From: Nemertoderma westbladi
Taxonomy: Eukaryota; Animalia; Xenacoelomorpha
Direction: 5' to 3'
Assembly (NCBI GenBank): GCA_032718475.1
Contig: JAUCBJ010005681.1
Coordinates: forward strand, 1 to 35,112
DNA: 35,112 bases
Shown: in pieces, positions 1,877-34,994 of the stretch
How the letters are laid out: each line of letters begins with the position of its first letter
How positions within the stretch are numbered: the stretch's first letter is position 1
The notes under the pieces: model-generated
The model's input: only the letters and a program-made list of their open reading frames with translations
Databases searched by the model: none
What the model was told of the DNA's origin: nothing
Program-made: the position numbers and the translations under genes

Positions 1877-1926
1877 TTAGTGTGAATTAGTGTAAATTAG
1901 TGTGAAGTAGTGTGAATTCGTGTGAA
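1877..1926 (+). repeat. 10-bp tandem repeat (TTAGTGTGAA)x5 in the 5' leader of element A
   Basis: ttagtgtgaa ttagtgtaaa ttagtgtgaa gtagtgtgaa ttcgtgtgaa. Confidence 0.8.
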
Positions 1927-6498: not shown

Positions 6499-6582
6499 GA
6501 AGAACCCCGACTGTCTATTCCAGATCGACAGCTCTCTGGTAAAGCGCCAACATCATCTGTCGGTATCCGAGAGTTTCCCGTA

Positions 6583-9861: not shown

Positions 9862-10178
9862 CTGAAATTCTAGTTGATTAAGATATCGCGGCACCCACCG
9901 ATATACTTGAAAGACAAAATTCTAGAATCAGTGGTTAACATCCCCAGACATGTTCTGGAATAAATAGGTGCCCATCCTAAATATTAAATATTTAATAAAT
10001 ATTTACAACGTTTGTTATAACAAATGTTAAAATAGAGAAAAATATAAATTGAGTATGTTAAAATTTTAGATCCTCTAAAATTCTAGTCGATTGAGATATC
10101 GTAGTACTTACTGATACTCTTAAAAGACAAATTTCTGGAATTAAGGATCCTAGTTCCCAGACATGTTCTAGAATAAAA
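9862..10178 (+). repeat. Diverged direct repeat (~105 bp core, ~213 bp offset) in the pol-ORF3 spacer of element A
   Basis: aaattctagt.gatt.agatatcg...aaagacaaa.ttct.gaat...cccagacatgttct.gaataaa occurs at ~9862-9965 and ~10075-10178. Confidence 0.75.
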
Positions 10179-11000
10179 TTGTGTCTATTTTAATATCAAA
10201 TAATAAAATTCATGGGAATAAATTTTAAATTCATATCCTCTCATGAATTTGATAAATTGTCATTTTATACAATTTATAAACATTCCCAAAATTCCATTAA
10301 TTAATAGATCATGGGAGCGGAGATTCACCCTATTAAGTATATCAGTGTGAGAGAATCTCCAGTGTACAGTCAATAGACGATAAAATTCATAAAATCATGT
10401 ATAAGGGGAATATTGACAATTAAAGAATCACTATTAAATAGCATCCCAGATCTGTATGCATGAGAAATACCCTAATTCTACCGCTAGCTTTGCATAATGT
10501 CACCATAGTAACAACCACGCTAGAATTAGAAGTGAGTTAAAATAACAATAGAAAGCTTGCCCCATTGAATATCATGCGGAATAAATATCACCTTGCTAGT
10601 ATCTAGGGATACATAATAATAATGTGGCATTCTGGAAGGCCTTTGACTAACGGACAAATGGCCCTAATTTGTACAAATTGTGGCAGGAATGTGGAATTTG
10701 TGTATTTATAGGTGAATGTTACTACTAAAGTGTGTTTACAGTAGCGAGTCGCAGTTGTGAAAGTTACTCTGCATCTGTAGCAAGTACCTCCAGTATGTCC
10801 AAGCCCTTGGGACGGACAGTGGGGTGACTCGCGCTGGTTATTGTTGTCGTTGTGTAGCTACTACGTTGGCGAGAGGCACAGCAACGACAGTACATCAGCG
10901 CTGAGGATCTCATGCTGTCTGGGGGCATAGAGGGGGAGGCAGCGACGACCACTAGCCTGATTATTATTAACTCTAATATCGATAAACTCATATAGCAGCT

Positions 11001-14000
11001 ATGACTGAGTTGATAGAAGATGCTCTTGGTATCAGGGAGCGATATACCCTACCACTGCAAGCGTTTATTGATAGTTTGATAAGCGGCGATGCTAGTCAAC
11101 ATACGACGGAAGATGATGGCCATTATATCGAACCACCAATGTCAAAGGAACAGCTCAAGCGTGAATTGGACTATTGGAAATTCACCGCTCGCTATACGCA
11201 TCGTAATGGTATGTATATGGACTTCTTAACTACTGGTCATCATATCGATTTACATGATACCGAAAGTGTAGACACCGAAAGGGAAATGATTCTATTTAAA
11301 TATCATGCCCAGCAGAATCGGAATGATAAACTGAGAATTGAACATGAAAATTCTATTTGAAACCGGATCGAAAGAGAAGATGTTGAAGAACCGTATAAAC
11401 GTAGTGACTTCAACGAATATTTAGAATTCTTGAGAGAAACTTATCTCAATGTGGCTAGTCAACAAAATCTAGAAACTCGATATCCTCAAGGTATACATCA
11501 TAACCCTATGGTAGAACTCAAACGACTCTATTTTACTATGATGTATCTTACCGCCGATCGACCGATACCTGTTGTACCGGATAGCTTCGAATGGATGGAG
11601 GAATATTGTAAAACTGGAGAAAGATCACCTGCATTTTCCCTACAAGACGTGCGTCTTTGGTATTACTGCGATGAATGCCCTAGACCCAATCAACAAACAG
11701 AAAGACATAAAAATCCGCGGAGACGTTGCGCTAAACACAGTTTTACTCGCTATACTTATGGGAGTTTTGAGCAAAACTTATTCAACGTATCACCTACGCT
11801 CACTCGACTCAAACGATCCTTAAATAAACCTATGATCAGAGTTCCGGAATACTCGGTCAGACCTCCTCATTCCCTGGTGCGACCTCAGACTCTTGATCCT
11901 AATAGTATGACGGACCCTCCTGAGTTGTACTCATTGTTCAAAGATCTAGTGTTACCTAAACAATTAGTCGGTGGCACTCCGGTTGTGGGCTCTCTAGATA
12001 TTCGCCCATCCTTCCTAGCCGGATTGGGACATGGACATCTAATATCTCCGTTCAACCCGTATAATCGTCCCGGTTTAACTCCGATACAACCTGTCACCGA
12101 GGTGGAGGAAAGCGTTGTACGAAATGCGCTAGACGCTATTCGGCAAAAGATCAGAAAAGGAACCTACGATTGATTAGACAAAAGTAGCTCTTAACGTTAT
12201 CGAAATGTATGGAGTTGTCACTTATGATATCGAAGGTAGCGTTCCGGTTGGAGAACTGGGAACTACACGAATGATACACATACAAGGACTAGCTGGTTCT
12301 ACCCATGTATTTACTCGAGCGTGTTCCGACGTGATCGATTATTCTTTTGAGACTCTTACAGAGATACAAAAGAAACTCCGACATGGACAATTCGAACTCG
12401 CGCAGCGTTATGTTTCCGATACCGAGCGCAAACTGGCCATGGGTATAGATGGATCTATGCTACCCCAGCCAGTGCTCGAGATGCTGTTTGACGAGAGAAT
12501 CCTTAAAATTGGCTCAGCTGTTTATGGAGATCTCCAAAATGACTTCAGAAACATGGAGAATATCCCCTATCCTTTCGTAGACACCCAGCTGATTGCACCC
12601 TGGGCAGAAGGCCGAGGTTTCTTCCGAACCATGTATGCCAATACATCAAGCGGAATCAATAAAGTACAAAGAATCTCTATCAGACATCTTGCCTTCCAAG
12701 AATACGGATGGAATTTCATTGTTGGAAATCCTGTCAGTTATCAACAAATATATGGAGACCATTATTCTCGATTATATTTTGACAGACCATTAACTGCACC
12801 TGGAGTCTTCTATAGCTTTATGAGTGTTCCACTCCGTCCCTCATTAGCTATATACACTATCTTCGAGAATGCCGCACTTGCCGGTTGGCTAGCCGATGTG
12901 TGCAGTCGCACTATACGCGCTCATCCCTTAGTGCTTGGAACCTAACTCACCAAGCTAGATGAACACAATAAATTCATCCGATTCGAATGCTTTAGGCACT
13001 TTCTGACTCCGTTCCGCAACGTTGATAGTCAGTTCAATGACCACGCTTTGACCAAGCTCAGCTTAAGAGATTCAGCAGCTGAGAAGTTGGACAACGCTGG
13101 ATTTGCCATTTTTAAGGACGTTTGTATACAGAACCTACATTCATCTGTCATACAAAGACCCCGAATCCCCACAGGTTATTCTATTGTGGAAGTTCAAACA
13201 GTGGGTTCACTTGAGGAAACAGCTGTACCTATCTCAGCTATGCAAGTGGAAGTAGAACCAATTTGTTTGGAATCCGAAGACATTCAACCCACACCCCCCA
13301 GGAGTAGCGACAATGATTATGTGTTGGAATGGTATCAGGGTCCACAATGTCTCATGGCATATGATTATCGGCATGCCAATTACATTTCTAGGAAACATTG
13401 CCGATTATGTGCATCACGAGACCACTTTACCCCGGTGGACTCCAGCGAACCCTGCTCCTACTTTAAAGATCAACCTATTATGGAGATTTATTGTGCGTAT
13501 TGTAGACTCAACAATCTACACATCTTCGCCGTCTGCCCCTAATTTATGACTCAATGTCACCATTGTCAGTTCAAAGGACACGCAAGTTTTGATTGCACTT
13601 TCAACCGAGATCTGGAGAGCATAGACGAAATAGTTACCCTGCGCTACATCAGAATCACGTCACCGATACTATCCAGAACATGCGTATGAAGGAATCTATG
13701 CATTTCACCCATACCTCTTTGCATCCATCGAACAAAATTCTCGCATTCCCAGTTACGAACTGATGAAGCGTGTTGGCAAGAATATTTCATCTAAATATGT
13801 TTGCAAATATCTTAGGAATATTAATCCCAATAACCTGAATTCCTATAACTTGATCAACTTCATTCATCAAGATCAGGAATACGGCGACTTGTTCATAAAC
13901 TTGCATCCTGAATTACAAGAAATTCATAGACGACCCTATGAATATAAAGCCAGAGAACGCGAATTAGAGAGAACAATTAAACCGCGGAAATTTCTCACTA

Positions 14001-14296
14001 CACACAGTCAACCTACCGCTGTCGTACAAACGACCCATCAAGGACCGGTAAGAGCTGCCATCCTGAAACGAGCTCTAAAGGTTGTTCTCCCTCATTCCAC
14101 CGATGTTGACATCGATCAACCGGGTACCTCGACCGGCGGATACACCGACCGTAATCCAAAACCTTCTGATGCAATCGTATTGCACCCTTCACCCCGGAGT
14201 TATAGCCCTCCTAGTAAAGTGGCTCGCCCCAAAGAGAAAAAGACTCTTACTAGTCTCAAAAAACTTCGTAAACGCCGTTCACGAAAGAAGGACTAA
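11001..14296 (+). pseudogene. Accessory ORF3 of element A (~1,100 aa reconstructed): Cys/His N-region, DEDDy 3'-5' exonuclease, three zinc knuckles, basic tail
   Basis: ORF pieces join through single in-frame stops (11358, 12171, 12943, 13540) and about two frameshifts. Motifs: YDIEG (ExoI), LPQPVLEMLFDERILKIGSAVYGD (ExoII), FVDTQ, IYTIFEN (ExoIII-like); CRLCASRDH, CAYCRLNNLHIFAVCP, CHHCQFKGHASFDC. Confidence 0.82.
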
Positions 14297-14365
14297 TAGT
14301 TTAGAGTATTTTTGTATTTTAGAAACTGTGATTTTTTATATTTTATAGACTTAAATCCCATTTTC

Positions 14366-14374
14366 TGGGAGCGG
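14366..14374 (+). other. Polypurine tract of element A
   Basis: TGGGAGCGG lies directly before the TG of the 3' LTR. Confidence 0.7.
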
Positions 14375-14658
14375 TGTAAAAGCTTTTGCGGACATAACAA
14401 GTCATTTTCACGCAATGCGCAGAATACTCTAAAATAGCCCTAAAATTGTTCAACTAAGCGTTGGAAAGAAATTAGAACCAAGATGACGAAATCTGTCAGC
14501 TGATTCTTTGTGTACGTGGAGGTTTCTTTGTTCAGGCTTATTCAGCCAATCAGAGCAATTTTCCCAGTTATGCCAGTAGAGACCTTCCTGAGGAAACTAG
14601 TGCAATGCATTATGGTTATCGTTATTCTGAGAATTCGATTCATCTCAGAATTCTATAC
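14375..14658 (+). repeat. 3' LTR of element A (apparently truncated on the right)
   Basis: Matches 1184-1467, then switches abruptly to unrelated GC-richer sequence. There is no terminal CA and no full copy of the upstream flank GCCTC. Confidence 0.88.
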
Positions 14659-16105
14659 GCCGCGCACGGGCTGGCTTCGGCGGATGTAACTTCAGTACAC
14701 CAGGTAATTGGTAAGGGCTAAAGTCGATTCATAATCAAAAGGACATTTAAAATTGGCAGGTTAAACTGCTAAAGGTCTGAAAGCGCGAACAGCCTCGTAC
14801 AATCACCCAACCCATCGTCATTCCGTCAGGCCGCACACCACTTGTAACACCCTGTTGGCCGGTGGTCCTGTAGTACTCTCGCCGTCATCTCGTTTCGACT
14901 CGAGCTCCTCCCCCTGTACCAATCCGCGTTCCTCGTCCTCAACTGACCTGCAGCCCATGTGACAGATCTGGTGTAGCGGGCTGGTACTGCTGGGTCGCAG
15001 CCTCCCGAATATTTAAGCCCATCTCACTGTGTTCTCTCGCCTCCCGAACTTTAGGGCATCCCAAGTTTGCTCATCGTCGTCGCGTCATCGGTGATCTTGT
15101 CGTCAACATATTGTCATCTCCGGTGATGTTTTCACTGTTCAGCATAGTTTTCCACTAGGACAGGATCCCAGTTGGCCTGAGATCCCGGCCATTTGACTTT
15201 GGTGATGTTCCCTATGTGCGTGCTGGCTAATGCAATGGCTGACTGGTGGTTGGACTGACTGACTTGGCCGTAGGCCAGTGAAATAAAAGAGTTTGTTTGG
15301 TGAACTTTACTATTAATTGACTGACTGATGAATATGGTGTACCGGTAGTGATGATAGCACAGCATAGTGGAGGAAAACTATTTCTCCTCTACTACACTGA
15401 ATAAATGCCAACTGATTGCACAATACATGTGATCATTAATATAAAGGGGTAAATACATTGCCTACCTACATGCTAATACGTTTTAGTGACCTGTGATCGA
15501 TACACTCTAAGATGCCACATGCAGCCCTCCCATTGGCTGCCTTATCATGCCATAAACCTGCCTCCCTATGGCTTCTGCTAGACTCTGCCCACCGAGGTAG
15601 ATTGTTAGTCCACTGCCAGGCTAGCCCTATTGAATCATACCTTTGCTGGTATGCCCTATTGGATACCTTGATGGCCAACTTGGTAAATCGGCTCCCCCCA
15701 CACTTTGTGGGTTGGAATTGCTGAGCGGAATGGATCCGCTAACAAGACACAATCATTGCGAAAAAATCATTCAAGGGAAAATACAATTTTGCGATTTATA
15801 TTTATATCGCGACATTAGAGACTACCTGTACTTCACACATGATATCTCGTGAACGAAACAAGATATGTAAAAACTGTTTTTAGATTTGGAATCACCAATA
15901 CATTCGATTCAGATGGGATGGATATACTTAAAAGGATAATTTTGGTACATATTATTACTTTAAATAAATTTCAGTAATATTTGAACCCTCAATGATCTCA
16001 AATATGTTTGTATGTTATTATATAAAGTCGAATTTTATAGTTATCCAAAGACAAGCTACTTTCAACTCCTCCCAGCTTCTTAACCTTCTTAGAACAAATC
16101 CATCA

Positions 16106-17422
16106 TTAAATAATAATTATCACCTTACAGTACTTCACGTAATCATACACTTTGATCTTGTCCTTCCACTGACCAGTTAGTACACCTAATGCAACTCCAT
16201 TATCTGTAACTTGGCAATCGATGTGGCACTTCTTTAGTTCGGGGATACATTGTTTATTAAACTTAAGATCGCAAATATCCGATATAACTTGTATTTGTAA
16301 AGGGCTTATTGGTCCAATAACTTCTATGCTTCTTAACTTCCTACAATCTCTGACCAGAGAAACGAAGTCTGCTCTGATTGTTTCTCCATCTCCAATCTGT
16401 CTCGCCCAGCACCACCATATCCAATCTTCTAGACAGGTCCAGAAACTATACCGCAGATATCGCAATAGACTCGATACATCCTCGACTGTTTCCATTTGAA
16501 CATTCAATATCAACGTTGTCAGAGGAGGGCGCCCTTTTATCAATCGAATAACTGATTGGAAGTTAACTATGCCACTGAAAGTCAAAAACATATGAACTGA
16601 GAGGTCAGGGTTGGCCATTCTCCATGGGCTGCTGCTGCTATCATAGGCAAGAGGTTCAATATCAGCTGATTCTTGTGCATCTATACGCAGCATCAATCTT
16701 ATGAGAATGAGAGAAGGACAGTGAGTGAGAATTCTCTGTAAAACATCCCGATTCAGGTAATTGTACGTTATTCTCAAATTTGTCAACTTCCCTAGAGTGC
16801 TGAGTTGTCCCATAGCAGAGGGAAAAGGAATTTCTGTAGAAGCAGCAGAAGAGTCAATTAATCCAAATATTTCGAGGTTTCTAAGAGACCTGTGGTTGTT
16901 TCTGACGAGAATCCTTATAAGTTGGTCGGCTTCACTTAGTAGTTTTATACCGATACCATTTAAAGTTAGTTTTTCTAGAACTTTCTGTGAATCCATAAAT
17001 GCATTCAGAAGCTGATAGAACATGATGCTGTTAAGTTTTATGTCACAGTATCTTCCGCATAAAGTGAATTCTGTTAGTTGTGATTTCATGAGATGGATCA
17101 TTGATTGAATGAGGTGGTTTATAACTTGTTGCCGAAATATGAAACCGCCGAGATATATTGAAAACTTTTTCATATGGTGTCCGTATTGCCGTAATACTTC
17201 TATCTCATTACATTGTTCGCCATGGATGGTAATACTTCTCCTTCTCCAAAGACTTGCGTCTCTCTGGATCTCATTCCATCGACGACAGGTTTCGCCAGCG
17301 GAGAAACGATCGCGTTCTGGTAGGAACCTGAACAAATGGAGAAGTAGTTCTTTCGGGAGGAGCCATTGCCAATCAGACCCTTCGCTTTCATCGCTGGAGT
17401 GGTATCGCTCTCTATTGTTCAT
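16106..17422 (-). CDS. F-box protein with degenerate LRR-like repeats (438 aa, single coding exon)
   Basis: Uninterrupted ORF. LLPKELLLHLFRFLPERDRFSAGETCRRWNEIQRDASLWRR is an F-box. LxxLxL repeats follow (LEKLTL, LRNLEI, LTNLRI, CPSLILIRL, CRKLRSIEV). ATG at 17422 has a TTCCAG acceptor-like site just upstream, suggesting a 5' UTR intron. Confidence 0.88.
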   Translation of the reverse strand: MNNRERYHSSDESEGSDWQWLLPKELLLHLFRFLPERDRFSAGETCRRWNEIQRDASLWRRRSITIHGEQCNEIEVLRQYGHHMKKFSIYLGGFIFRQQVINHLIQSMIHLMKSQLTEFTLCGRYCDIKLNSIMFYQLLNAFMDSQKVLEKLTLNGIGIKLLSEADQLIRILVRNNHRSLRNLEIFGLIDSSAASTEIPFPSAMGQLSTLGKLTNLRITYNYLNRDVLQRILTHCPSLILIRLMLRIDAQESADIEPLAYDSSSSPWRMANPDLSVHMFLTFSGIVNFQSVIRLIKGRPPLTTLILNVQMETVEDVSSLLRYLRYSFWTCLEDWIWWCWARQIGDGETIRADFVSLVRDCRKLRSIEVIGPISPLQIQVISDICDLKFNKQCIPELKKCHIDCQVTDNGVALGVLTGQWKDKIKVYDYVKYCKVIIII

Positions 17423-17628
17423 CGTCGCTCTCACTGGAAGAGTACCGGTACATTATCTATAAGCTTTTGGATAATGAAATTAATTACTTAAAAGTAATCA
17501 ACATATTCATAGGTTACGAAACTGTTATGCTACTGTATATCACATAGGTATAATAGTATAATAGTTACATAGTTGTGATATTATAATAGTTACCAATCGT
17601 TGTTAATAATTGTGAAAAAATGTTTTAA

Positions 17629-18500: not shown

Positions 18501-19588
18501 GGCACTACTATGTTATGGGTACCCACTCTTTGACCATTTATTTGACAATGTTAATGGCTATTATCTTGAGGTTTTTTGTTTTAGAACATTAATGTCATCT
18601 TCTGTTAGACGTTAGCTATTTGGTTTTTTATGGTAGCTAGTGATTTCTTTTAGGTAGCTACTGTTTTTAAAATTACAAAATCAAATTTTTGGTACCTCAT
18701 TTTTGATCAATTTTTTGTTCAATTTCACCTTCTGAGAGAGGTTACCTATTATTTTGTATTAAGGTAGCTAGTGTTTTTAAAGGTAGCTAGTGATCTTAAA
18801 ATTACAAAATAATATTTTGGACCATGTTAATGGATATTATCAAGATGGCTTTTTGTTCTAGAACATACATTTTTTCTGAGAGAGGTTAGATATAATTTTT
18901 ATTATGGTAGGTACCGGTAGTGTTTATAAAGGTAGCTAGTGATCTTAAAATTACCAAAGAAATTTTGTAATGCCCCTTTTATTTAGACAATTTCCATATC
19001 ATCAATATATTCTCGCAATTAATAAAAATATAAATAAATCTAGTAATAAGTAAAATAGGCCTAAATAAATAAAATAAGTAAAAACTCTATTTTGACATCT
19101 GCCTATATTTTGTATAAAATATAAAAATATAGCTAGTGAATAATTACTAGCTACTTTGACTATCAAATAAAAATTACTAGCTACACCATGACTCATAAAT
19201 TATTCCATGCAAATATATAATTGAGAATTAAATTACCGGTATATCCTACATTTACTAGCTAATAAATAGTACTAGCTAACACAAAATCAAAAGTACTAGC
19301 TACCATCTTACTGTCAGAAGGTCAAATATTTGTTCTAGAAAAAAAAACCTCATAATAAAATACATTTTTACAAGAAAATCTTGGTAAATTTTTTTTTCAA
19401 TTTTTCAATTAAATTTTTTTTCACTAGCTAATAAAAAGTACTAGCTAAAACACAAAATCAAAATTACTAGCTACCGTCGTACTGGCAGAAAGTTAAATAT
19501 TTGTTCTAGAACAAAAACCTTATGATAAAAGCCATTTTCATATTAAACAATTTGTTTAAAAAGTGGGTACCCATAACATAGTAGTACT
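18501..19588. mobile_element. Non-autonomous foldback-like DNA transposon (Merlin-like MITE)
   Basis: Perfect 24-bp IR ACTACTATGTTATGGGTACCCACT (18504-18527 / 19562-19585). 8-bp TSD ACTACTTT (18493-18500 / 19589-19596). Left terminus GGCAC fits the Merlin GGNRM pattern. Long imperfect arms are built from GGTAGCTAGT / ACTAGCTACC units. Confidence 0.75.
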
Positions 19589-20485: not shown

Positions 20486-20535
20486 TGAAAAATTAATTGT
20501 ATTTTTAATATTATTTTTTGTTGTTTATAGCTAGC

Positions 20536-21206
20536 TGTGACGGGATCAGGGGATCCCGACCGGTTTATTTCGTTACGCGTCACCGTGTAATTGAGAAGAA
20601 GATAGTTTGTGGTTGTCGTTGTGATATTGTCATATGTTAACGCAAATATAAAATAACTGATATAAATATGATAGCACAGTTGAGCAAGGAATGTACAGAT
20701 AAATGTTAATAGATTGTACCGGTAGTAATGGTGACGTTAGGTGACGGTACGAAATGTCACTGGTGCCCACTGTGTGACTGAGATAACTGACCGGTAATAT
20801 AATTAACTGGTAATATATATTCACCCTTACTCTACTGTGGCCTTACTACCTAGTGGATGCTCTCCCTCGCCCCTCATTGGCTAACAACCTAATTCTCGGC
20901 TCCCACCTCTGTGGGAGTGCTTCCCCCCCCCCCCCCCCCCGCTGCTGTTACTTTCCCTTCTCAAGGGTGTCAAGTGTGTAGTGCTATGTCTAGTCTCCCG
21001 TCCTCTTGCCATAGTCAATTGGCCCCCAGTCCCAGTAGCTAGTTGGAAAAAGGGTTACATGACTATAGTACTTACTTTGATTATATTGGTTATATGATTA
21101 TATTCTAATGATTATTACATACGTACCTACTAATTGCACTTTTAATTAAATTTGCACTTAGGAGTTCGTATTACTTCACATGTGGTGCCTTCCAGGCATC
21201 CCCACA
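20536..21206 (-). repeat. Complete 3' LTR of element B (671 bp)
   Basis: Minus strand TGTG...CACA termini, immediately preceded by a PPT. 20536-20966 matches 30901-31318. Confidence 0.9.
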
Positions 21207-21217
21207 TCTCCCCCTCC
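21207..21217 (-). other. Polypurine tract of element B
   Basis: GGAGGGGGAGA abuts the LTR TG, a few bases after the ORF3 stop at 21223. Confidence 0.85.
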
Positions 21218-21222
21218 AAGTT

Positions 21223-23755
21223 CTAGTTCGCTCCTCCTGTCTTTGGGAACCATCTCAGTTCCTTCCCTTTGTCGTCGTCCTGTCTTGGTCGCTTTCTAGT
21301 TGTCGCCGCTCCCTTGTTCTTGTCCCCCTTAAGGTTCCTGATCCTTGCCGTTACTTCCCTACTGATTCCCGTCGTCGACTCCTTGGGCGCTGGTGTTATT
21401 AGCTCCCGGTATCGCTTCGCAGGTGGCCCCTCCGAATGCCCCTGCTGCTTCCCCCTAGTGGCGTCCCATAGGATCACCTTCATGGCCCGTGGCACATGCT
21501 CCGCCAAGAAATCTCTGAACTCTCCCCGGTTCTCTGGTGTCCACCTGTCTAAATACCTCTGTGTATTTATAACTCCGGCATATGACGCCGCCATTGACAC
21601 TTCCTGATAAGTAAACGGAAGTCTCCGTTTGATGATTTCCAGGTGGGCCTCCTGGTTAATATTAAAGAAGCCCCACCGGAATTCCTGGGCCTTCATCCGC
21701 TGCTGCGTCATGATGCCATCCAGTCGCATTGGCGTCCATAGTGCCCCCGGAAGTTGCACTTAGAACACCGGTTGTGCAACCATGGACACGCCCCCATCCT
21801 ATGACTCGACTCGCGGCAGTAGAGGCAACTCGTCCCATTCTGGAATCGGTACAAGCAGCTCCTTTCCTGGTGAGCAAGCCTCCCGCAGTGATCGCAGCCG
21901 AGTACCAATGCCTCCCGCCCCATGTCGTCTTTCGTCCCAAGCGATCTCCTCGGTCTATGGAGTTGCTGGTAAGCGAACTTCTGGATGTTAGTGTCCCTGT
22001 CCATGCCTATCTCCTCGTCTCGCCTGGGCATCGTCTCTCCGAATACTACCCGTGGTGCCGTTCCTGGTTGCTCGCCCAACCTGATGGTGCTCCCCGCGAA
22101 ATCCATCGCCAGCTCCTCATGCACCCAGGCCCGCTTGCCGGGTCTATCCCAGAAGGCCCTCGCCCCGCTGGCCGTCACCACTCTCCCGCCAACCCAGTCC
22201 GTGTCTGAGTGGCCGATTCTCCCGATGGGCGGCATCTCTCCGAACTCGTCGTCGTCCTCGTCCTCCTCTGGCAGTGGCTCCAAACCCGGTACTGTGTCCC
22301 TTCCCATCTTGGCTCTCGCCCGTGACTCTCCATCCTTCCAGTTCCCCTGGCCTTCTCTTCGCGAAATCACCCTCGGCGCCCGCTGGTATGGGCATCGTCT
22401 GCAATCCCGATGTTGACTGTTTCAGCGATCCTTCCGCCCACCCCAATTCTCGCCCTAGAGACTCGCCCGAACTCCCTGATGTCCAGTGTAGATCGTCCAA
22501 GGCCGCCTGGGCCTCGAACCCATAGCCCTCTCCTCTAGCTTCCGCCTCTCTTTCTTCTGCCTCCATCCTTTCTCATCTAGCGATTTCTTCCAATCGCTTC
22601 GCCTCTCGTCTATCCGCCTCTAGCTGCTCCCACATCTGATATGGTGTATCCACCTCCCTGTCTACTAGATATCAGCAGTTATAGTATACCGACTCGCCCT
22701 TCAGCCCCGGGTGGTCTACCAGACCCTCGAAAGCCACTTTGAAGGCTCTTCTGTAGTTCAGGGGTGATCCCAATAGCAGAAATGCCATTGGTTGTCTTTC
22801 AATAACCACAGTCATGAATAGGTTTAGCAAACCTATCATTATCCAGTCCTCCTGCAGGATATATCGCTTCTGATATATCTTTATCGCTCCTCTCCGGAAT
22901 TGATACACCCCTTGCTTCCCCGGCCTCGCTCCCCACTTCAGCGAGTTCGCCAACTCCGCTCCATACTCCTCCCTGAATTTACCCCAGTCCACTGGCTTGT
23001 GGCATACGAGCCCCATTAGCTGGCCCATCGCCACCGCTCCACAATGGCCCGTGTTCTCTACTAGTCCCAACTCGGCTGGCCCCGACATAGCCATGTAGAC
23101 CGTTTGCGTGTCCAGGAGGTTGGGGGTCTCCGGACTGATGATCCTCTCCGCATCGTCGCGGATCACCGATCCCACCTTTATCGTCGACTTCTCTCTTACT
23201 ACGTTCTGCACCGCCCTTGGCAACCGGTTTAACTTCGGCCCATTCTTCTTCCCATACGTTCCCAGATCGAACAGGAATATATCCCCATTTGGCGCGGCCA
23301 AATGCAGGAGTATGGTTCTGGCCGACCCCGCCGACCCTCTTCTTGAACCTTCCTCGTCTTCCACGGTCCCTTCGTTGTCTAGGACCATGTATCCTCCCCT
23401 GCTGACGGACTCTACAAACCTCTTCCAGTCCTTTTTCGGTGGTTCCCTTGGATACTTCGGTATCCCGAACTTCGCCTCGTCTCCCTTTACCACGTAGTGG
23501 AAATGCTCGAAGATCGCGTTGTCTAGCGATGGTGTCCCGTAGGTCCCGACCAGCCGCTGCTCGTGCACCTCCCTGAAATGGTCCTGCAGCGCTCGCGCCT
23601 TGTGACCCTTCTCTAACCGCTCGTAGTATTCTTTTGGTGAAATCTACCAGTATCTCCTTTCCTCCCAACTCCGCCTTTCTCTTTCTAACAAGTTTCTCCG
23701 CCATTTCGAACTCTCCCGATCGCTCACCTATAAGGGGGCTTTTACCAAGGCTCAA
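21223..23755 (-). pseudogene. Accessory ORF3 of element B (~840 aa reconstructed): DEDDy 3'-5' exonuclease, acidic linker, three zinc knuckles, basic tail
   Basis: MVLDNEG (ExoI), LLHLAAPNGDIFLFDL, LPRAVQNVVREKSTIKVGSVIRDD (ExoII), NLLDTQ, QKRYILQED (ExoIII-like); CDHCGRLAHQERSC, CLYCRESSHRMGACP, CSKCNFRGHYGRQC. Broken by TGA stops and frameshifts. Confidence 0.85.
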
Positions 23756-24112
23756 TATAAGTGAGTGATGTAGTTAGGATGGTCTGTACGGTCCGATAAT
23801 GGCCTATCTCTCTCTGAACGCTAGGTTATTGCCGAATTTTCTTATTCTACTCCCTAAAAGGTGCCAAATTTCATAAATTCCCTAATTTTGTCAGTTACTT
23901 TTATTATGTTCTAGAATATCCTGCCTACTGTTACCATAATTTGTCTAATTTTGATTTTAATATTTTATTTTAAATCCTACAACTGTATCAGTATCTATTA
24001 ATGGATTATTTATTTTAATCCCCCTTCTGACCTATTCTACGGGCCGTGCAGTACAGTAGTATGTCTCGTGCGGCCTATACGATCTGTCCTGCTGTACCCA
24101 CGTGCCCCCCTC

Positions 24113-24925
24113 TCACTACTCACTACTAACTCTACTAACTTTTACTAACACACTAACTCTTACTAACATTCTAACTAACTTCTACTAACTCTTACTATGT
24201 ACCCTCTTACTAACTCTTCTACTAACGGTACTACACGTACCGTTTTACTAACTCTTCTACTAACGGTACTACACATACCCTCTTACTAACTCTTCTACTA
24301 ACAGTACTACACGTACCCTCCTACTAACTCTTATACTAACTCTCACTAATGGTACTACCATTAGTAATTAATCTTACTAACTAACTCCACTAACTCTTAC
24401 TAATGGTACTACGTACCCTCTTACTAACTAACTCCACTAACTCTTACTAACGGTACTACGTACCCTCTTACTAACTAACTCCACTAACTCTTACTAACAG
24501 TACTACGTACCCTCTTACTAACTAACTCCACTAACTCTTACTAACGGTACTACATACCCTCTTACTAACTAACTCCACTAACTCTTACTAACGGTACTAC
24601 GTACCCTCTTACTAACTAACTCCCCTAACTCTTACTAACGGTACTACGTACCCTCTTACTAACTAACTCCACTAGCTCTTACTAACGGTACTACATACCC
24701 TCTTACTAACTAACTCCACTAACTAACGGTACTACGTACCCTCTCACTACTAACTCCACTATCTAATGGTACTATGCACCCTCTTACTAACTAACTCCAC
24801 TAACTAACGGTACTACGTACCCTCTTACTACTAACTCCACTAACTAACGGTACTACGTACCCTCTTACTACTAACTAACTCTCTAACTAACTTCTATCTG
24901 CCTACTTACTTACTACGTACCTACT
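24113..24925. repeat. CTAA-rich minisatellite (47-bp core unit, shorter variants at the edges) inside element B
   Basis: Unit TTACTAACTAACTCCACTAACTCTTACTAACGGTACTACGTACCCTC repeats with a 47-bp period from ~24374 to ~24720. Confidence 0.92.
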
Positions 24926-25069
24926 ATGTACTATCACCCTCCTTTCTCTTACTCTCTTTCTATTATTTTTATTGTTTTTATTTTTTTTATATTTTGTGTG
25001 GGAAGGGCGTCTCGCCCTCAATCCCACCCCCTCAGTCCAACACTTGGATGACTAAACTCTATGAGCCCC

Positions 25070-26570
25070 CTATCGTAGTACTAGGTAAAGTGCTGCTCCG
25101 TATGCTTCCAATGACGCATCGGAGAACATGTGTAGATCCAGATCCGTCATGTCCCCATCCGGGAAATACACGCGTGGCATGCTGTACGTCCCCATCTGTT
25201 CTAAACTCTCCGTCCACTTGCTCCATTGCTTGCTGATCTCTTCCGGGACCTCTGTATCCCATTCGTCCTTTAGCTTATATACTTTCTTAAGTATCTGTTT
25301 CCCCGTGACTAACAGTGGGGATGCTAGGCCTAGGAGATCGTATATCCTTGCTATGTATGATACATAGCCCCTCTTTGTGTGGATGTCCGCGCCCTCCTGG
25401 CTCAGCTGATACTTGAACTCGTCTGTCTCCCGGTTCCACACGATCCCTAGTGCCTTCTGGTGGGACTCTACTCGTTTGTCCGCCATGTTCTGTCCCTTGG
25501 CTGTCGTGGGGTTATTCATGGTCGACTCTGGCCTCCTGTCCTCTATGGCTTTCATAAACTCTTCTGAGCTGGATTTGAACTTGGTCAGGTTAAACCCGGA
25601 TCCCTTCAGGATGTCGCGAATCTCGCGCCCTGTATCCAGTAGTTCTTTAACCGTGTTTCCAGACTCCATTCCGTCGTCTACTTAGAGGCCGCGTCGAATC
25701 ATATTGACGGCTTTGGCGCTATATTTATCCTCTTTCCCCTCTACTGTATCCCTCACAGCCACAGTCGTCGTAAATGAGGACGACTTAGCCCCCATATTCT
25801 GCACCACCATCTTGTACATCGGTATTGTCGATGGTTCCTCGTCACCGTTGTACCATAGGAAGCGCTGGCTGTCACTATCCTCCTGCGTCACACGGACTTG
25901 GTTGAACATGCCTTCAATGTCGCAGGTGAAGGCGTGCCTCCCGTTTCTGAATCTCAGTAGGACCTTGATTCCTGAGTTATAGATATTGGGGCCTTCCAGC
26001 AGGTAGTCGTTTAGGCATTTGCCGTTGGTCTTAGCCGATGCGTCAACTTCCATCCGTAATTTACCTTTCTTTGGATCTAGAGCCACGTGAAGTGGCAGAT
26101 AATAGGTCCTATCCGTGTTCGGTTCGTCGACCGGTAACTCCACGGCCCATCCTTTCTCGATATACTTCCTTATCGTCTTGTGGATGTACTCATCCTTTTC
26201 GGGGCTCCGCCTCAGCGTTTGCTTCAGTTTGCGGAGCCTCGTGAGTACCATTCCCTTGTTATCTGGTAGCGGTAATTTTGGTTGTTTCCACACCATCCCT
26301 ATGGTGTACTCCCCCTCGTCGCATTTCATCGACTCCTTTACGCTTTGTATTGCCTGTTTATCTTCTACCGAGGTTCCCACCTCGGTCTCTATCAATCCCT
26401 CAAAGTCCTGTCTGAGTAGTCTCCTGAGCTGCTCCTCCGCTCCTTCATCTTAAATCTCCCTCATAGTTCCCGCGAACATGCACCCTGATGTCTCCGACAT
26501 CCTAAACGGAATCTTGGTTCTAATTGAGCCGCTTATCGTCCACCCGAATGGTGTTAAAATTGCCACCTGG
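25070..26570 (-). pseudogene. pol: Protease tail, reverse transcriptase and RNase H N-terminus of element B
   Basis: AILTPFGWTISG; YYLPLH...KLRMEVDASA...LNDYLLEGP...LLRFR...DIEGMFNQV...QRFLW; catalytic YVDD reads *VDD (TAA at 25682-25684); KALGIVW, TKRG...YDLLGL, LHMFSDASLEAYGA. Confidence 0.93.
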
Positions 26571-29500
26571 TCACGCTGTCTGTCTTCGTCTTGCCAATAT
26601 CTGCAGTTCATGGTCTGATGAAGTGCGTTCGTGTGTAATTGGCATTTGTTGTTTGGATTATAGCCGTCCTTATACAGTGCGCTGCGTATCGCACTTGCAT
26701 TCGTACCTAGATCCCTACTATTCTTATTGTTTGGTTTCAGCCTACTGGGCGTGTTGGGGTTATGTTTGTTTATGTTGTTATTTTTCCCCTGTCCGCTCCA
26801 TGGTGTGGCCCTACCCCCGGCTACATGTGGACTAGTAGTCCCCTGCATCGCCACGTATGGCAGCGATTGTCTGAGCTTTGGCAATGCGTTCGCCGTGTTG
26901 TGTTCTGGTTTCGGCCTGTTATATTTGGTCTTTGGCCCCTTTCCCAGACTATCCTCGCTATAGACTGGGTCTGTGATCAATTCGGCTTCGTAGTTGAGGA
27001 AGATCGACATTTCTTCTAGGCGTGGTTCCGCACGCTTCTTCTCACGGGTGGAGAAAGCGATTTTTCTCCATTTATTGCGCAGCCAGATCGGCAGCGCCTG
27101 CGCTATCGTGGTGATGTTATTAGATGTGTTGAGTTCATATGGCGCGTCTAGCATCTTCAACACGATCAGTGCCTTCTCGACTTTGTTCGCAAATGTCTTT
27201 ATGCTAACGGGGTTATCCTGTAGGCCACCCGATGTTATACTCATATATCCTATTGATAGTGATATCTCAGAGTCTGCCGGATGATCTTGGCTGGGTGCCC
27301 GTACTCCCTGTCCAGGGCCCGCCATGCAGTCGTGAAGCCACCCTCGATGCCCTGGTACTGCCTCACGATGTCATACTCTGGGCCTCCTGTATATACCTTT
27401 AGATATTTTAGGCACTCCGCCTGCGTCAGGTTCTTGGTCAATATCTCGTTGCTGTACATGCGACGGAATTGCAGGTATTCTACCAGCCTACTTCCATCGA
27501 ATTTAAATGGCTCCACGGGTGGTAGCTCGATCCTGGTCTTGAGTGCATCGATTAATGTAGCCATTCCCATCGCCTGTGCTTCCAATGGGTTCGAAGGATG
27601 CTGTACAGATTCTCCCGTTGGGTGCGGTCCGCCCATCCTGTTCGTTGCTTTCCGTTGTGTCGGATATACCATTGGGGGTAATGGCCCCCTCCATATTTCC
27701 GTGTCGCAAGATCTGTTCTCGTCCAGGGGATTCGATGTTCTCATTCCTGTTTGAATATATTGTTGATATTGCAATGGGGGAATGTCACCCTGTCCCCCCC
27801 CCCCCCCCAACGATGGTATGTTTTGTACTGGGGTTGATGTTAATATATTGGGGCCCATACATCTACCTGCAATATCCCCCTCAACCGGGTATTTGCATAT
27901 ATTTGTTCTTGGTTGTTTATATTGCCTATCTGCAATATCCCCCTCAACCGGGTATATGTTATGTCCCTGCATGCTATAGTCATACTTTTGTGCTGGTACA
28001 GGTATAGGCCTATCCACTTCTTGCCTACCTACTGGTATGTACTCCGCAACTTCTGGATCTAATCCTGCCGTTCGCGCTACCCTATCGCCTACACTATCTC
28101 TCCCAGCATGGCCTATAGTATGTGCAGTAAGGCCTACAGTATGTCCTGCGCTCTGCATGTGCCCTTCCGGACCGAAGTTTAATCTTCTCGAATCTCAAAT
28201 CTCCCTGCGACTACCGTTATCTCGATCGGCAGCTATATCCCCTCCACTTTCGATCCCCTCCACTATTCTCGTCCTCGTACCGGTACGCCCTGTACCCTTC
28301 TCTCGGCGTATAGTACACCTCGCCAGGTTGCGTCTCTCCGGGACGACGGCAATCTCCCAGAGTTCGACCCCACCGCCTCTCCAACTCCATCTCTACTACC
28401 GACGGCTCGCTATCCGTCCTCGCTCTCCTGTCGCTCGGAACGACACTTCTTCTACTCTCTTCTCTCCTTCTTTCTGCAGTGTAGCATCCCCGCTCGTGAG
28501 ATCTCTCGTCGACCTCCCAGTTCAACTCCACTGTTTTTCTTCCCTCTTCTGACTGGCCTCGACATCTTGTCGCTCGCCCTCTCGTGACGCCACGGTCTCT
28601 CTACCCGGTCGCACGCCGATGGGGATATTCCTAATCCCCCTATTACTCTCCATCGTCGGGTGCTGCGGTTCACCTAACTCGCCCCGCGCATTGTCCGCCG
28701 ACGCCTGTGGGACACTCTCTGCCCCCCCCTCTTGCCGCTAATCTCTCGTTGTGGGGCTCCTGTAGCCCCCCCCCCCCCCCCACTCGCCACCTATCACTTC
28801 ACTATCTCTCACTTCGCCTCTGCGTCCCTCTCTAGTCGACGCACTTTCCCTACTGTGGCTGGGTCTATTCACCCCCGCCTCTCCATCTATCACTGCGTGG
28901 CCTGGAAGGCTCCCGTCGGGTTGACTCACCCCCACTACTCCCTGCGTATTAATTACGTGGCCTACCAGGCTCCCGTCGGGGTCTCTCACCCCGTTACCCC
29001 CTGCGTACTGATTATGTGGCCTGGCAGGCTCTCGTTGGCCGGGCCACCTACATCTGCCGCGTTTATATTGATAGCACCAGTATCAATATTATTTTCTAAA
29101 TTATTTAAATTATTAGAATTATTCTGTGCTGAATTCGGATTATTATTTAAATTATTCTGTATATTTGAATTAGAATCGGGATTATTTTGCTTGTTTGAAT
29201 TAAAATTATTATTTAGATTATTTTGCGTATTTAAATTTAAATTATTTGAATTATTTTCTACATTTAAATTAGGATCGTTCGGATTTAAATTACTATTATC
29301 GGGCAAAGTATTATTTCCTGCAATGAAAGATTGATTAGGGTTATCTACTACGGTACTATTAATATTGACGCCTTCTAGCGTATTATTATTACCCCCCCCC
29401 CCCCCCCCCCCCCCCGCCCGTACGGTTACACCAGTCTTGGGTCGGTCGTCCGGTCCCTGTAAGTGGGGTATTAACAAAAGTTTCCATTACTTCTGGCTCC

Positions 29501-30833
29501 TCGTAAACACTACCCGAGCCAGCCTCACTCTCTGATAGCCCCAACTGCGCCAGTTCTAATCGGCGCTTCTGTTTGGCCTGATATTGCATAAGCCCCCTCA
29601 ACCGGGCGTGCATGTCATCCCGCACATGCTTTCCCGTTCTCTCTCTCTCCCTATCCTCTCGCAAACTCTGCTCGGCCAACTCCGCCTCTCTTGCAATCCT
29701 CTCAAGCCGCCTCGCCCCATGCTCTTTTCGCTCGCTCGCCCCTCTCGCCTCATGCTCTTTACGCTCGCTCTCCTCTCTCGCCTCACGCTCTTTACGCTCA
29801 CTCTCCTCTCTCGCCCCTCTCGCCTCATGCTCTTTATGCTCGTTCGCCTCTTTCGCCTCTTGCTCTTCTCGCTCCTTTCCTTCCCTTATTTCTATCTCCT
29901 CACACTCTCTAAAGTTTCTCGCGACCCTCTCAGCCCTCTCTTTATTCTCTCTCGCCAGCTCTCTCTCTCTTTCTAACAACGCAGTTCCCTCTTCCAACTG
30001 CCTCTCTGGTCTAGCGCCACCATGTCTAATTGACACGCCAGATCTATTTCTAACACCCTTCTTGCTTTTGCGGAGGATGTAGCGGACTTGTCGGTCGTGA
30101 CGGACCCCCGTCGCCCCTCTGTCCTACTAACTTTCCCCCGCTTTCTGGGGTTCTCGCTAACTGACGAGACCGAATCCTCGGGGTTAATCTCGGATTCGCC
30201 TTCATGTGGGTCTGCCCAACCCACTAACTTAATTCCCCTAGCATCCACTAAATACGGCCCTATGTACACTACTTGGGGCTCCATTATCCCGGACTGCCAC
30301 AGTTCCAATAGTTCGGTGGCGACCCCTCTCGCTCTCTCACTGGCTAGTTCTCCCTGCCCGAAACGAACTAGGTATCTGAAATGTTTATTCGACTCACCTA
30401 GTCGCTGGCTCAACTTCCCTTGGTCTACCTTTGCTCCCTCTCTGGCCTCCCTGAGCTGTTTCTTCGTCACGTTGTAGGCTCGTCGGAGCCGATCACTGGT
30501 TCCGACGTCCTCGTCGCCGACCTCTCCTCCTCCCCTCCTGGTTTGGCGTCGTACCGGCGGCCCCACCGTCGCCGTTCCGGGGGGCTGTCCGTCGCCCTCG
30601 GCCTGTGGCTGGCTGGCGACATCGGTACTTCGACCGCCGTCGTGCATCGACTCGTCCCCTCGTTGTAGTAGACGGCCGCCCTCCGCTTGGGCTGCCGGAT
30701 CGTCTCTCTCCGGCGAATCCGGCGTTGCGGGTCGATACCGTCGTGTTGCGGCCTCACGGATCATTTCGTTGGTATCGTCCGGAGTCCGTGGCGGTGTTCT
30801 TTCTCCCTCTAGGTCTCGGGGCTCTGTGCTCAT
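26571..30833 (-). pseudogene. gag: Disrupted gag of element B
   Basis: ATG at 30833, 67 nt inside the 5' LTR. Contains INPEDSVS, an E/R coiled coil, ELPPVEPFKFDG...LKYLKVYTGG...AWRALDREYG (DUF1759-like), ALPIWLRNKW and one surviving knuckle CQLHTNALHQTMNC. Several frameshifts. Confidence 0.85.
28890..29040. repeat. ~60-bp tandem repeat (about 2.5 copies) in the gag region of element B
   Basis: GTGGCCT...AGGCTC(C/T)CGT(C/T)GG recurs at ~28897, ~28957 and ~29016. Confidence 0.75.
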
Positions 30834-30900
30834 CTTTTTTAACTTTTTTCTTTTGGTGGCTGGCAGTCACAGTTTAGCAGTGGTACTCGGAATTTCGTAC

Positions 30901-31318
30901 TGTGACGGGATCAGGGGATCCCGACCAGTTTATTTCGTTACGCGTCACTGTGTAATTGAGAAGAAGATAGTTTGTGGTTGTCGTTGTGATATTGTCATAT
31001 GTTAATGCAAATATAAAATAACTGATATAAATATGAAAGCGCAGTTAAATGTTTAAAACAGATAAATGTTAATAGATTGTACCGGTAGTAATGGTGACGT
31101 TAGGTGACGGTACGAAATGTCACTGGTCCCCACTGTGTGACTGAGATAACTAACCTGTAATATAATTAACTGGTAATATATATTCACCCTTACTCTACTG
31201 TGGCCTTACTACCTAGCGGTTGCTCTCCCTCGCCCCTCATTGGCTAACAACCTAATTCTCGGCTCCCACCTCTGTGGGAGTGCTTCCCCCCCGCTGCTGT
31301 TACTTTCCCTTCTCGAGG
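30901..31318 (-). repeat. 5' LTR of element B, missing the first ~240 bp of U3
   Basis: Matches 20536-20966 with scattered substitutions, a poly-C length difference and one rewritten ~15-bp patch. Similarity stops at 31318. Confidence 0.9.
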
Positions 31319-31384
31319 TAGCTTGACCTCTAACCTCTTTTGTGTGGCTCTTTGGGGCTGTATGTTGTCCCCGTTATTGGTTGT

Positions 31385-31416: not shown

Positions 31417-33147
31417 CCCAATATTGCTGAAAAACGCCACTTCCCAACTTTATGGGGATGGTGAGGCGGAATTGAATCCGCTCACACTAGCTAGTGTTTT
31501 TCCAAGTATCTATTGTAATGAATTTAGGTAAATTTAGATTTTTGGTCGTTTCCCAATCTCCCCTTGCATTATATTTCACTGACATTATATTTCACTTTTC
31601 ACTGATAAATTAATAAATATAAGCCAACTTTACTATGGATATTCATAATAATAATATGACTTGTTGGTATTTTTAGTTTTTTTTATGCCGTTTCTATCTA
31701 ATTTAATGATGCTCGCATGGCTTTTGGTGAGGTCAGTGTTAATGCCACTAGTGAATGGCATTTACCTCGCAGGCTCGCCCCATATTGTTAATTTACTTCT
31801 GCCAGTGAATCATTATGTTATACGGCAAGGGCCATGCAGAATAGCTCTGATTGGCTAATACCCATTTGCATTCAGCTTACCAGCCCCAGCCTATATATAG
31901 TATAGCATTATATCAGTTGGTCAGCCTAACTATTGAAGATTTATTAGTTAACAGCTCACTAGCTGTTAGTAGATTTGTGGGTCGGAATATTCATGTCAAT
32001 TCGTGACATTGCCGATGTCAATTTGTGATAATGATTCGTGTTATGTCGATTTATTGTTTGCCTATTAATTAATTTGTTATATCAGTTGAATTATTGCGAT
32101 TTATGTTATTATTATGTTATCGATAAAGATAAAGAGAATGGATTCAAGTCATTCTGTTGTTGATTTAACGTTGGTAGCACAATAACATTGAGGTTGGTGG
32201 TCTATAGACTGTACGGTATTGCAACTCATCGCACTGGGGTGTGTGTTACAGTATTGTCATATGACGCCTAATATTAATAGCAAACTAACATATTTTAATA
32301 CGTGCACAAAATTAATTCCTGTGACATCGGTATCTCGGATTGTCAGTTTCATAAATCCGACTTCCATAAGTCTCGAATGAATACAGTTTTCAGTTAGACA
32401 TAAAGACGTAAGCAGTCCAGACACACAACTTAAAGGAACTATTTATACGGGGTTTCAAATCTGTTTATAGTAATGCCAGTTTTATATGCAACAATAAATT
32501 ATTCTACGAGTACAAGTAACGGTTACTAGCGCCCGTTTCTTGTATATACAGCTGGTCGTAAGTTTAGGCTCATTATTTGCAAAATTGAATTGTAGCGCTA
32601 ACAGTCAGTTTGTAATAATAAGACTTATCAATAAATATCATTATCGTGTCAATCTGTCAATCCTATTAAGATGGTCATTTTGCTTAATGTGAAATATATA
32701 GCTGCAGTACTGCTATATTGCTGAACCATAGGATAATACATAAAATTATATGAATATTGAATATACTGCAACATATATTTTCTAGAATCGCGTATCAGAG
32801 CAATTTCTAAGAAAAGAGTATATCTTTAGGTAAAAATGGTATTATACATCAATTATAGAACATTTTTTTAAAATTATACGATTATAGTTTTAGCTAGTTT
32901 CCGTAGCAATATGCGAAAATTAACAATAAACATACAATATTGCAATGTTCTAGAGTTAATATACGGAAATAATAACCTGAAGCAAATAAAGCTGAATAAT
33001 CACTGATGCCGTTCCAGAAGCGAATTAACCTATATAATTACCGAGGCCGCAGGCCGAGGTTATTATATTATGTTAATTTGGTGAAGAATAAGGCAGAAGT
33101 GATTTTTACAGTTTTATTCGCTTTTTCCACAGATGTAGTTATTCTTT

Positions 33148-33482
33148 TCGAAGAATCTACAGTTTGGATTTCCATAACGGAATATCCCGAAAGTATTTTG
33201 GGTCTCTGCAGAACAGCGGAATGCATATTATTTTGAATGCAAACGTCTATAAATATAGCGAATCCGGCACTACCTAGTTTCTCAGCGGCGGAGTCTCGCA
33301 GGCTGAGTTTGGTCGGTGCGCGATCTTTAAACTGACTATCAACGTTCCGAAACGGAGTCAGAAAGCACCTGAAACATTCAAATCGGATGAATTTGTTATG
33401 TTCATCTAATTTTCGCGAGTTTAGTTCCCAGGATAAGTGGATGGGAACGTATGGTTCGACTGCACACATCGGCTAACCATCC
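33148..33482 (-). pseudogene. Isolated fragment of an element-A-type accessory ORF3 from a sister family
   Basis: GWLADVCSRTIRSHPLILGTKLAK/LDEHNKFIRFECFRCFLTPFRNVDSQF...TKLSLRDSAAEKL aligns codon by codon with 12883-13210. Confidence 0.92.
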
Positions 33483-34994
33483 AGAAAGTTTAGAAACACT
33501 TTATAATTAATGAAGACATCCCTGTTTAATATTATAAAATAAATTCGATGTAAAGAACATCATCAACGAAATTAGAGACTTTTATCATGAACGTGGAAAA
33601 TTCTAAGTAAAAAGTCAATCTTTCACATCTACGTATCTACGTTCTAGAAATGTTATACAGTAGCTAACTGTAAATACGTTACATGTATTATTTATCAAAT
33701 TACAACACCATGCACTTGAATGTTGTTGTCTTATTTCAGTAGTTATTACTGTGCCAAAAGGATTTATGTTTTAGAATAAACATTTGACCTTATCTGACCT
33801 GACAGCAAGATGGTAGCCAGTAATTTTGTGATATTGGTACTAGTATATATAGTATGTATAACCAGTACTAGTACAGTATGTATGTATACAGCACATTTGT
33901 GTTTATTTATTGGGTATTGTGGCATTTTATTATGTTCTAGAACATTGGTGAATGTTCTAGAACCTTACTAGAAATTTTTTTTATGGTGCTCGTTTTTTTT
34001 ACTAGCTACTATTTTTTGAAAATAAAAAAATATAATATTGTTTTATAGTGTTTTTTTTATATTGGTGAATGTTCTTAAACCTTAATATATATTTTTTATG
34101 GTTGCTAGTTTGTTTTATTACAGTAGGTGGATAAGTGTTCATATTCGGGACATGAAGTCCCTACCTCACACAACACTCTCAGCAATTTCTTGATGGGGAT
34201 TGGGTTGTACGAGAAACATTGTGTTGATTTTCAGCACTTCCAGTGGACCAAGTACATGAACAGGAGAACAAACTATTAAAAGGCGATGGAAGAATAATTG
34301 GGCTAACAGAAAACCCATAGTTATTGCAGCATTGGCTTCTTGTAGCACCTGATTAGTGCAATTTTGTAACAACGAATGATTTTATTATACTTATAATTAG
34401 TAAGAAATGAAATGGTATATAAGACAGAATGATTTTCAAACTTTTAATTTAAACATCTATATATATTCATTTAATTCACCAAAAAGGTATTTAAATTATG
34501 TACAATAAAATATTCGGGATATTATTAAAACAGGAGTTAGCACTTTAATAATTTTAATATTTAAAAATAAAACTAATAGTAAATAAAATATGTTTGTTTT
34601 CCATTTAACCCCGAGCCCAATGACTAAGGGATATTTTATTCTCGGGACAATCGAGCAGATGGTATATTGTTGCCACGCCGCCACATAGATCGCAAATACA
34701 ATCTTCATTAGGCGAATGAATGATAAGAGGAGTTCTTACAATATTTATAGTGGAACCCATGCATGGCAAATCGAGTGTAATACATGTAACCTCTTTAACT
34801 ATTTACAATTATTATAGCTGAGCTGTAAAATGGACTGAGACATATAAGAAAAATGTATGTATTCTTTTCTATCATGGTCAACTCCCGTATATGGGGCTAT
34901 GGTTACCTGTACCGGTACATTCCAAGTCGATTAACTAAAACTAATTTAATAAGCTGTAGGGCCTCTCTCTGGTGTGAAAAACAAAATATATTTG

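Follow-up and report, generated by a model that had tools for sequence, protein, structure and literature searches.

A predicted exonuclease and zinc-knuckle ORF3 under purifying selection in BEL/Pao-type retrotransposons of Nemertoderma westbladi

Third open reading frames (ORF3s) that encode a DEDDy exonuclease are known from the Juno1/2, Vesta2/5 and Athena/Terminon elements of bdelloid rotifers (PMC5408684). According to the available text of that paper, the rotifer ORF3 has a DEED motif and an unproven activity, and sequence variation was examined for the env and GDSL ORF3s only, where it looked neutral within the genome. Three further papers, in the parts that could be consulted, repeat the rotifer ORF3 account or deal with a DEDDh gene carried by Kolobok DNA transposons (PMC6431247, PMC6338049, PMC9587614). 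The Belpaoviridae are described with gag, pol and env only and with a length of 4.2-10 kb (PMC8742986). No published exonuclease ORF3 of a BEL/Pao element was found in the open-access literature searched, and the word 'exonuclease' is absent from the available text of PMC3118150 and PMC8556966. Among host genes, Egalitarian, EXD1 and MUT-7 have eukaryotic RNase D-like domains that act on or bind RNA, as is predicted for the gene described here, and Egalitarian is a weak match to it in the PDB; these host genes differ from ORF3 in having other partner domains. MUT-7 acts in small-RNA production, according to the available text of PMC11347159.

The window, that is the whole stretch of 35,112 nucleotides analysed (contig JAUCBJ010005681.1), contains ORF3s in two elements, A and B, and a third, decayed ORF3 piece, fragment C. 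These ORF3s are like those of rotifer Juno, Vesta and Athena elements in that an RNase D-like exonuclease forms a third gene after pol, with no transmembrane segment, one altered acidic position and an activity that is only predicted. They differ in the carrier, which is BEL/Pao-type here, no BEL or Pao element being named in the available text of PMC5408684. The predicted site is D-E-D-E here and DEED in the rotifer ORF3, the two being compared by published description, and there are three CCHC knuckles in frame, whereas the available text of the rotifer paper notes only a Cys-His-Cys motif, in Vesta2/5. Finally, selection is measured here on a DEDDy-like ORF3, whereas the rotifer variation data, in the same text, are for env and GDSL ORF3s.

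The window consists of two BEL/Pao-type LTR retrotransposons, one F-box gene and AT-rich repeat debris. Element A (1184-14658, forward strand) has LTRs at 1184-1467 and 14375-14658 that are 96.8% identical to each other, a gag, and protease and integrase remnants; its relatives are found in very many contigs in the DNA runs of one organism. Element B, a distant relative of A, lies on the reverse strand (20535-31318) with LTRs at 20535-20966 and 30900-31318. The likeness to Belpaoviridae comprises the LTRs, a DUF1759 gag with three knuckles, Peptidase_A17, DUF5641 and the integrase. In Pfam all matches are above cut-offs, with DUF1759 in the gag of both elements, DUF5641 and Integrase_H2C2 in A and Peptidase_A17 in B. 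The full PR-RT-RH-IN set is seen in neither copy, and the RT families of Pfam gave no match. LTR lengths of 284 bp in A and about 415-430 bp in B are inside the 0.2-1.2 kb of Belpaoviridae. Unlike in that family, the elements measure 13.5 kb (A) and 10.8 kb (B), both above its range, and the env slot holds a nuclease-knuckle gene; in both elements this extra coding DNA lies between pol and the 3' LTR and is preceded by an AT-rich spacer over 1 kb long. The oversize of A and B is explained by ORF3 and the spacer, and because the size falls outside the range the two are termed BEL/Pao-type only.

The LTRs of A align only to ...TAC and are bordered by a 5-bp target duplication with one mismatch (1178-1500, 14375-14664). 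Element B fits TG...CA and has a 7-bp target duplication, also with one mismatch (20528-20545, 30870-31326). GTACG stands behind the 5' LTR in both elements, and TGG is absent within 12 nt after the 5' LTR in both, each of which is a decayed copy; Belpaoviridae have a primer-binding site for tRNA-Arg or tRNA-Gly at this place. Nine nucleotides behind the LTR of B are complementary to LTR position 197, a post hoc observation reached by 9 of 300 shuffles, and are a possible hint of self-priming; no such complement was found in A.

Several other features were seen in the window. About 1.7 kb of A (7429-9157), integrase region included, are skipped by contigs of several runs, pointing to deleted non-autonomous versions of A. 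The spacer between pol and ORF3 of A contains a 147-bp direct repeat, 71-73% alike (9834-10202). No integrase match was found in B, which has tandem arrays of 38- and 47-bp units between the broken pol and ORF3 (24108-24915). Between A and B there is an uninterrupted frame of 448 amino acids with an F-box (PF12937, E 1e-12; 16106-17452, reverse strand), either an intronless host gene or a retrocopy. A repeat-rich element at 18504-19585 has inverted ends (18504-18576 and 19513-19585), and related pieces at 33759-34120 adjoin fragment C.

The exonuclease domain of ORF3 in A, predicted from sequence profiles to be RNase D/DEDDy-like, is at 12178-12942 on the forward strand. Its predicted site comprises Asp 12226 and Glu 12232 in ExoI, Asp 12529 in ExoII, and Tyr 12853 and Glu 12865 in ExoIII. 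Three Cys/His knuckles follow in the exonuclease frame of the same strand (13399-13596, with starts at 13399, 13492 and 13555); the first is irregular in spacing. Two open frames of 124 and 270 amino acids upstream of the exonuclease (10986-12170, forward strand), in another frame and with no Pfam match, are possibly the N-terminal part of ORF3. The longer of these (11361-12170) has a C-x2-C ... C-x2-H motif and may be an N-terminal domain. After the knuckles there is an open frame of 220 amino acids in another register than the exonuclease (13634-14293, forward strand), with a basic tail and no similarity to the database protein P0003 described below, which is possibly the C-terminal part. 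In B the exonuclease-like domain is at 22675-23643 on the reverse strand, with the ExoI Asp at 23379, and the three CCHC knuckles (21896, 21827 and 21767) and a C-terminal piece lie in broken frames at 21226-22421 on the same strand.

A HMMER search of 1.84 billion proteins gave three matches at E<=0.001. P0003 (E 1.2e-4) is a single sequence of 648 amino acids from a 9449-bp ENA contig, with exonuclease, linker and three CCHC knuckles in one frame; its knuckles, like those of B, are regular in spacing. The other two, P0001 and P0002, were rejected as repetitive, unrelated proteins matched by chance. P0003 is similar to A in the exonuclease (pairwise E 4e-12), with the knuckles also aligning, and to B in the exonuclease (3e-8), the knuckles (3e-9) and, weakly, the C-terminal piece (0.03). 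Direct BLAST between the exonucleases of A and B was not significant (E 0.075). Since P0003 matches both, it links the ORF3s of A and B. Its knuckles match retroviral nucleocapsids (E 1e-4). The highest 19-residue hydropathy was 1.46 in the ten sequences scanned, all ten being without a transmembrane segment, and ORF3 is therefore not env-like. Word-index homologue searches gave nothing new for A (276-881 aa) or for alignment A1 (140-454 aa) and returned for P0003 only itself, and scans of metagenome contigs, viral contigs and phages for ORF3 relatives gave no match.

No Pfam family passes its cut-off in the exonuclease region, and the best NCBIfam match of A is RNase D with an E of 0.0014, far below the cut-off. 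The profile built from the three sequences (A, B and P0003) matched three PDB entries, the top two being RNase D and Egalitarian with weak E values (0.23 and 0.8), and in E. coli it had a single match, which is rnd. At E<=0.5 it matched 38 of the 81 bacterial genomes searched, where DEDDy domains contain 28 of the 30 best loci. With hhalign the probability was 78% against a bacterial DEDDy set of 25 rows (30 rows minus five wrong-frame rows) and 90% against RNase D (35 RNase D-size proteins; E 2e-6), with ExoI and ExoII aligned. An ESM feature search with residues 30-300 of P0003 found PF01612 in 25 of 30 hits (score 0.93), the three best matches being unnamed fungal clusters of about 214 amino acids. 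PDB searches with A or B as single sequences gave chance rows only, and two AlphaFold models had pLDDT values of 32.9 and 33.3, with nothing found by Foldseek.

The motifs agree with the RNase D / DNA polymerase I 3'-5' exonuclease family (PF01612, TIGR01388) in ExoI DxE, ExoII K..D, DTQ, and PL-x3-Q-x2-Y before ExoIII. All three sequences have the ExoI Asp-x-Glu, aligned to DTE of RNase D, and the ExoII Asp, aligned to SEDL. The ExoIII motif of DEDDy exonucleases is Tyr-x3-Asp, and all three sequences have Tyr-x3-Glu instead. Around it they read PL/AI-x3-Q/L-x2-Y-x3-E, where RNase D has PL-x3-Q-x2-Y-x3-D; this pattern was written after the sequences had been seen and was reached in a lenient control by 20-27 of 5000 shuffles, and ExoIII of B is aligned with the other two by BLAST but not by MAFFT. 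Because of the Glu in place of Asp, ORF3 is filed as DEDDy-like and not as a canonical DEDDy member. It also departs from the RNase D family in that the region conserved in fragment C has no match, that knuckles are present instead, and that no score reaches the curated cut-offs. All three sequences, although only 20-27% identical, keep the acidic residues at the three ExoI and ExoII positions and the Tyr of ExoIII. From the profiles and motifs together, ORF3 very probably adopts a DEDDy-like fold with a D-E-D-(Y)-E site.

Fragment C is an isolated, decayed ORF3 piece of 337 bp on the reverse strand at about 33152-33489. When the window is compared with itself by blastn, 33489-33153 pairs once, with 12876-13208 on the forward strand in the ORF3 of element A (74.3% over 338 columns, E 2e-53). 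The initial annotation called it a third ORF3 copy; the homology with ORF3 stands, while the status of a copy does not, as there is only a 337-bp fragment. A 1-bp insertion near 33410 and one extra codon, both proposed there, were confirmed, the inserted base lying in an A-run and the codon, by codon pairing, at 33230-33232. The fragment preserves the helix that follows the predicted ExoIII motif, and the conserved region beyond that helix. It begins three codons past the last predicted catalytic residue (12865), extends from 22 codons before an in-frame stop of A to about 87 after it, and ends about 63 codons short of the first knuckle (13399), and so contains neither catalytic residues nor knuckles. 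An HRDC-like identity of the conserved region was not supported; full-length RNase D, including the C-terminal part, gave a probability of 0.1%. Tblastn around the fragment found no further ORF3, nor a possible extra eight codons upstream of 33489, and tblastn with the ORF3 pieces of B gave no match at the fragment. Judged by these matches, fragment C belongs to the lineage of A only and not to that of B. An imperfect, MITE-like palindrome (32980-33123) adjoins its end; the apparent open frame of C down to 33068 arises because the frame enters this palindrome, and the tail is not ORF3.

The codon alignment of C with A comprises 108 codons (12883-13206). The synonymous codon pairs quoted in the initial annotation are present in it, and the in-frame TAA of A at 12943 is opposite a sense codon in C. 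Mismatches number 20, 9 and 54 at codon positions 1, 2 and 3, and 87 of the 108 residues are identical. Over these codons pS is 0.756 and pN 0.102 (Fisher p 1e-27), giving a pN/pS of 0.135 in the ORF3 frame, compared with 0.34 (antisense, same register) to 2.97 in the other five frames. Because pS is saturated a codon model with kappa (5.8) was fitted, covering 107 sense codons with the stop codon dropped, for one sequence pair and the region after the active site only. In this model dS is 2.5 and dN 0.105, and omega is 0.042 (profile interval about 0.013-0.083), not near 1; omega=1 is rejected (p 1e-22).

The 20 codons before the stop of A contain 9 synonymous and 2 non-synonymous differences, and the 87 codons after it 36 and 18. 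The bias is thus found on both sides of the stop, and both sides were therefore selected in one register. Sixteen positions at which A is listed as differing from the contigs of its family lie in the aligned stretch. Seven of these are first or second codon positions, and C differs from A at all seven: one is in the stop, and six make up 6 of the 20 amino-acid differences, where A departs from at least 80% of the contig depth. Part of pN is thus the divergence of A itself from its family, and omega is if anything too high. ORF3 is kept by strong purifying selection as a protein. In this sense the earlier statement that it was functional is upheld; the activity of the enzyme is only predicted. 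The dS of 2.5, set against an LTR divergence of 3%, indicates that C would come from a long-separated sister subfamily and not from the burst of A itself. Fragment C thus appears, from sequence, to be the remnant of a sister subfamily of element A.

Element A has two in-frame stops that contig depth identifies as private to this copy, at 12943-12945 and, inside the knuckle region, at 13540-13542 (both forward strand). The stretch 12860-13600 was compared with the contigs of three DNA runs (X1-X3; two samples, two studies), which are contigs and not copies, and one run may be the source of the window. No RNA run was listed for the sequence beside them, a result with no bearing on expression. 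For the stop at 12943, the contig depth whose first letter is not that of the window amounts to 28248.7 of 28260.6, 52623.1 of 52623.1 and 57037 of 57036.9 (34, 21 and 25 contigs). The corresponding values for the stop at 13540 are 157104.7 of 157141.7, 239278.8 of 239316.9 and 163941.4 of 164135.7 (45, 39 and 29 contigs). The depth without a stop is therefore 99.96-100% at 12943 and 99.88-100% across both stops in all three runs. Since any stop codon must share the first letter of that in the window, the family is without a stop at 12943 and 13540, and its consensus does not keep the stop at 12943. No indel with a share of at least 80% was found in 12860-13600 in the three runs. The lack of family stops and indels, together with the open stretches of A itself, means that a single frame spans 12178-13686 in the family. 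Contigs without gaps that are about 80% alike to A cover the stretch measured against C, as expected of sister subfamilies. At about 13210-13290, where fragment C stops, there is a dip in summed contig depth; such depth is unable to rank parts of the gene.

The initial annotation had concluded from fragment C that exonuclease and knuckles were one reading frame under purifying selection. The fragment alone, with no catalytic residue and no knuckle, is insufficient for this, and it is the contigs and P0003 that support the claim. The homology, the selection, the private nature of both stops of A and the same one-frame layout in the independent protein P0003 are virtually certain.

The best explanation as a whole, a selected one-frame exonuclease-knuckle gene with the role proposed here, has about an even chance of being right. 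ORF3 would encode a predicted RNase D-like 3'-5' exonuclease followed by three zinc knuckles, which likely grip single-stranded RNA while the nuclease trims its 3' end, and the enzyme is moderately likely to be active on RNA. Encoded in the env slot, the protein would probably have a message of its own and act in trans. Its role may be counter-defence, in which the RNAs shortened or destroyed would be, tentatively, either host silencing RNAs or aberrant RNAs of the element that feed silencing. A trans-acting counter-defence is favoured because the gene occupies the env slot, away from pol, and is missing from most BEL/Pao elements. In its most specific form, an old, undescribed BEL/Pao branch whose D-E-D-E exonuclease and three nucleocapsid-like knuckles would destroy small RNAs and so blunt host silencing, the proposal is rather unlikely to hold in full.

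ORF3 might instead be an active nuclease for the replication of the element itself, trimming the primer, the end of the genomic RNA or cDNA overhangs in the particle, with the knuckles as a second nucleocapsid. The ORF3 knuckles resemble nucleocapsid knuckles, RNase D is the nearest named family, and a 3'-end processing of element RNA is raised for the rotifer ORF3 by Rodriguez et al. in the available text of PMC5408684. The missing TGG within 12 nt of the 5' LTR in A and B suggests that priming may be non-standard, but the primer sites are read from decayed copies. ORF3 is moreover placed apart from pol, behind an AT-rich spacer of >1 kb, and most BEL/Pao elements have gag and pol alone, with env in some (PMC8742986); a replication role is unlikely.

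Alternatively, the exonuclease may have little or no catalytic activity, and the protein may serve as an RNA-binding adaptor or decoy in the manner of Egalitarian, EXD1 and Maelstrom. The Glu in place of Asp in ExoIII of all three sequences is consistent with this, as is the presence of Egalitarian among the three PDB matches of the profile, and EXD1 and Maelstrom are inactive DEDD derivatives that keep RNA binding, according to the available text of PMC5408684. However, four acidic positions and the Tyr are kept across an identity of 20-27%, a pattern that would sooner be expected of a metal site kept intact than of one that has decayed, and an adaptor or decoy is unlikely. That the synonymous bias has another cause, be it a host gene remnant, an overlapping frame or mutational bias, is very improbable and already largely refuted: the measurement comes from a single pair and transitions are strongly favoured (kappa 5.8), but the model that includes kappa still rejects omega=1 (p 1e-22), the ratio is low in the ORF3 frame only, and the measured stretch is also spanned by the gap-free contigs, about 80% alike to A, described above.

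If the counter-defence role is true, an animal retrotransposon would carry a gene for an enzyme that counters silencing, and this may help to explain the abundance of the family of A. Fragment C in itself is ordinary retrotransposon debris, yet it gives good support to a novel form of an accessory gene already known from other elements, an exonuclease-knuckle ORF3 on BEL/Pao-type elements. The rotifer paper, in its available text, left open whether nuclease ORF3s benefit the element (PMC5408684). Two subfamilies with saturated synonymous sites and about 10% difference at replacement sites are direct evidence that the gene was needed in at least one lineage. The exonuclease cargo is thereby extended to BEL/Pao-type elements, with a predicted enzyme whose unusual active site is testable.
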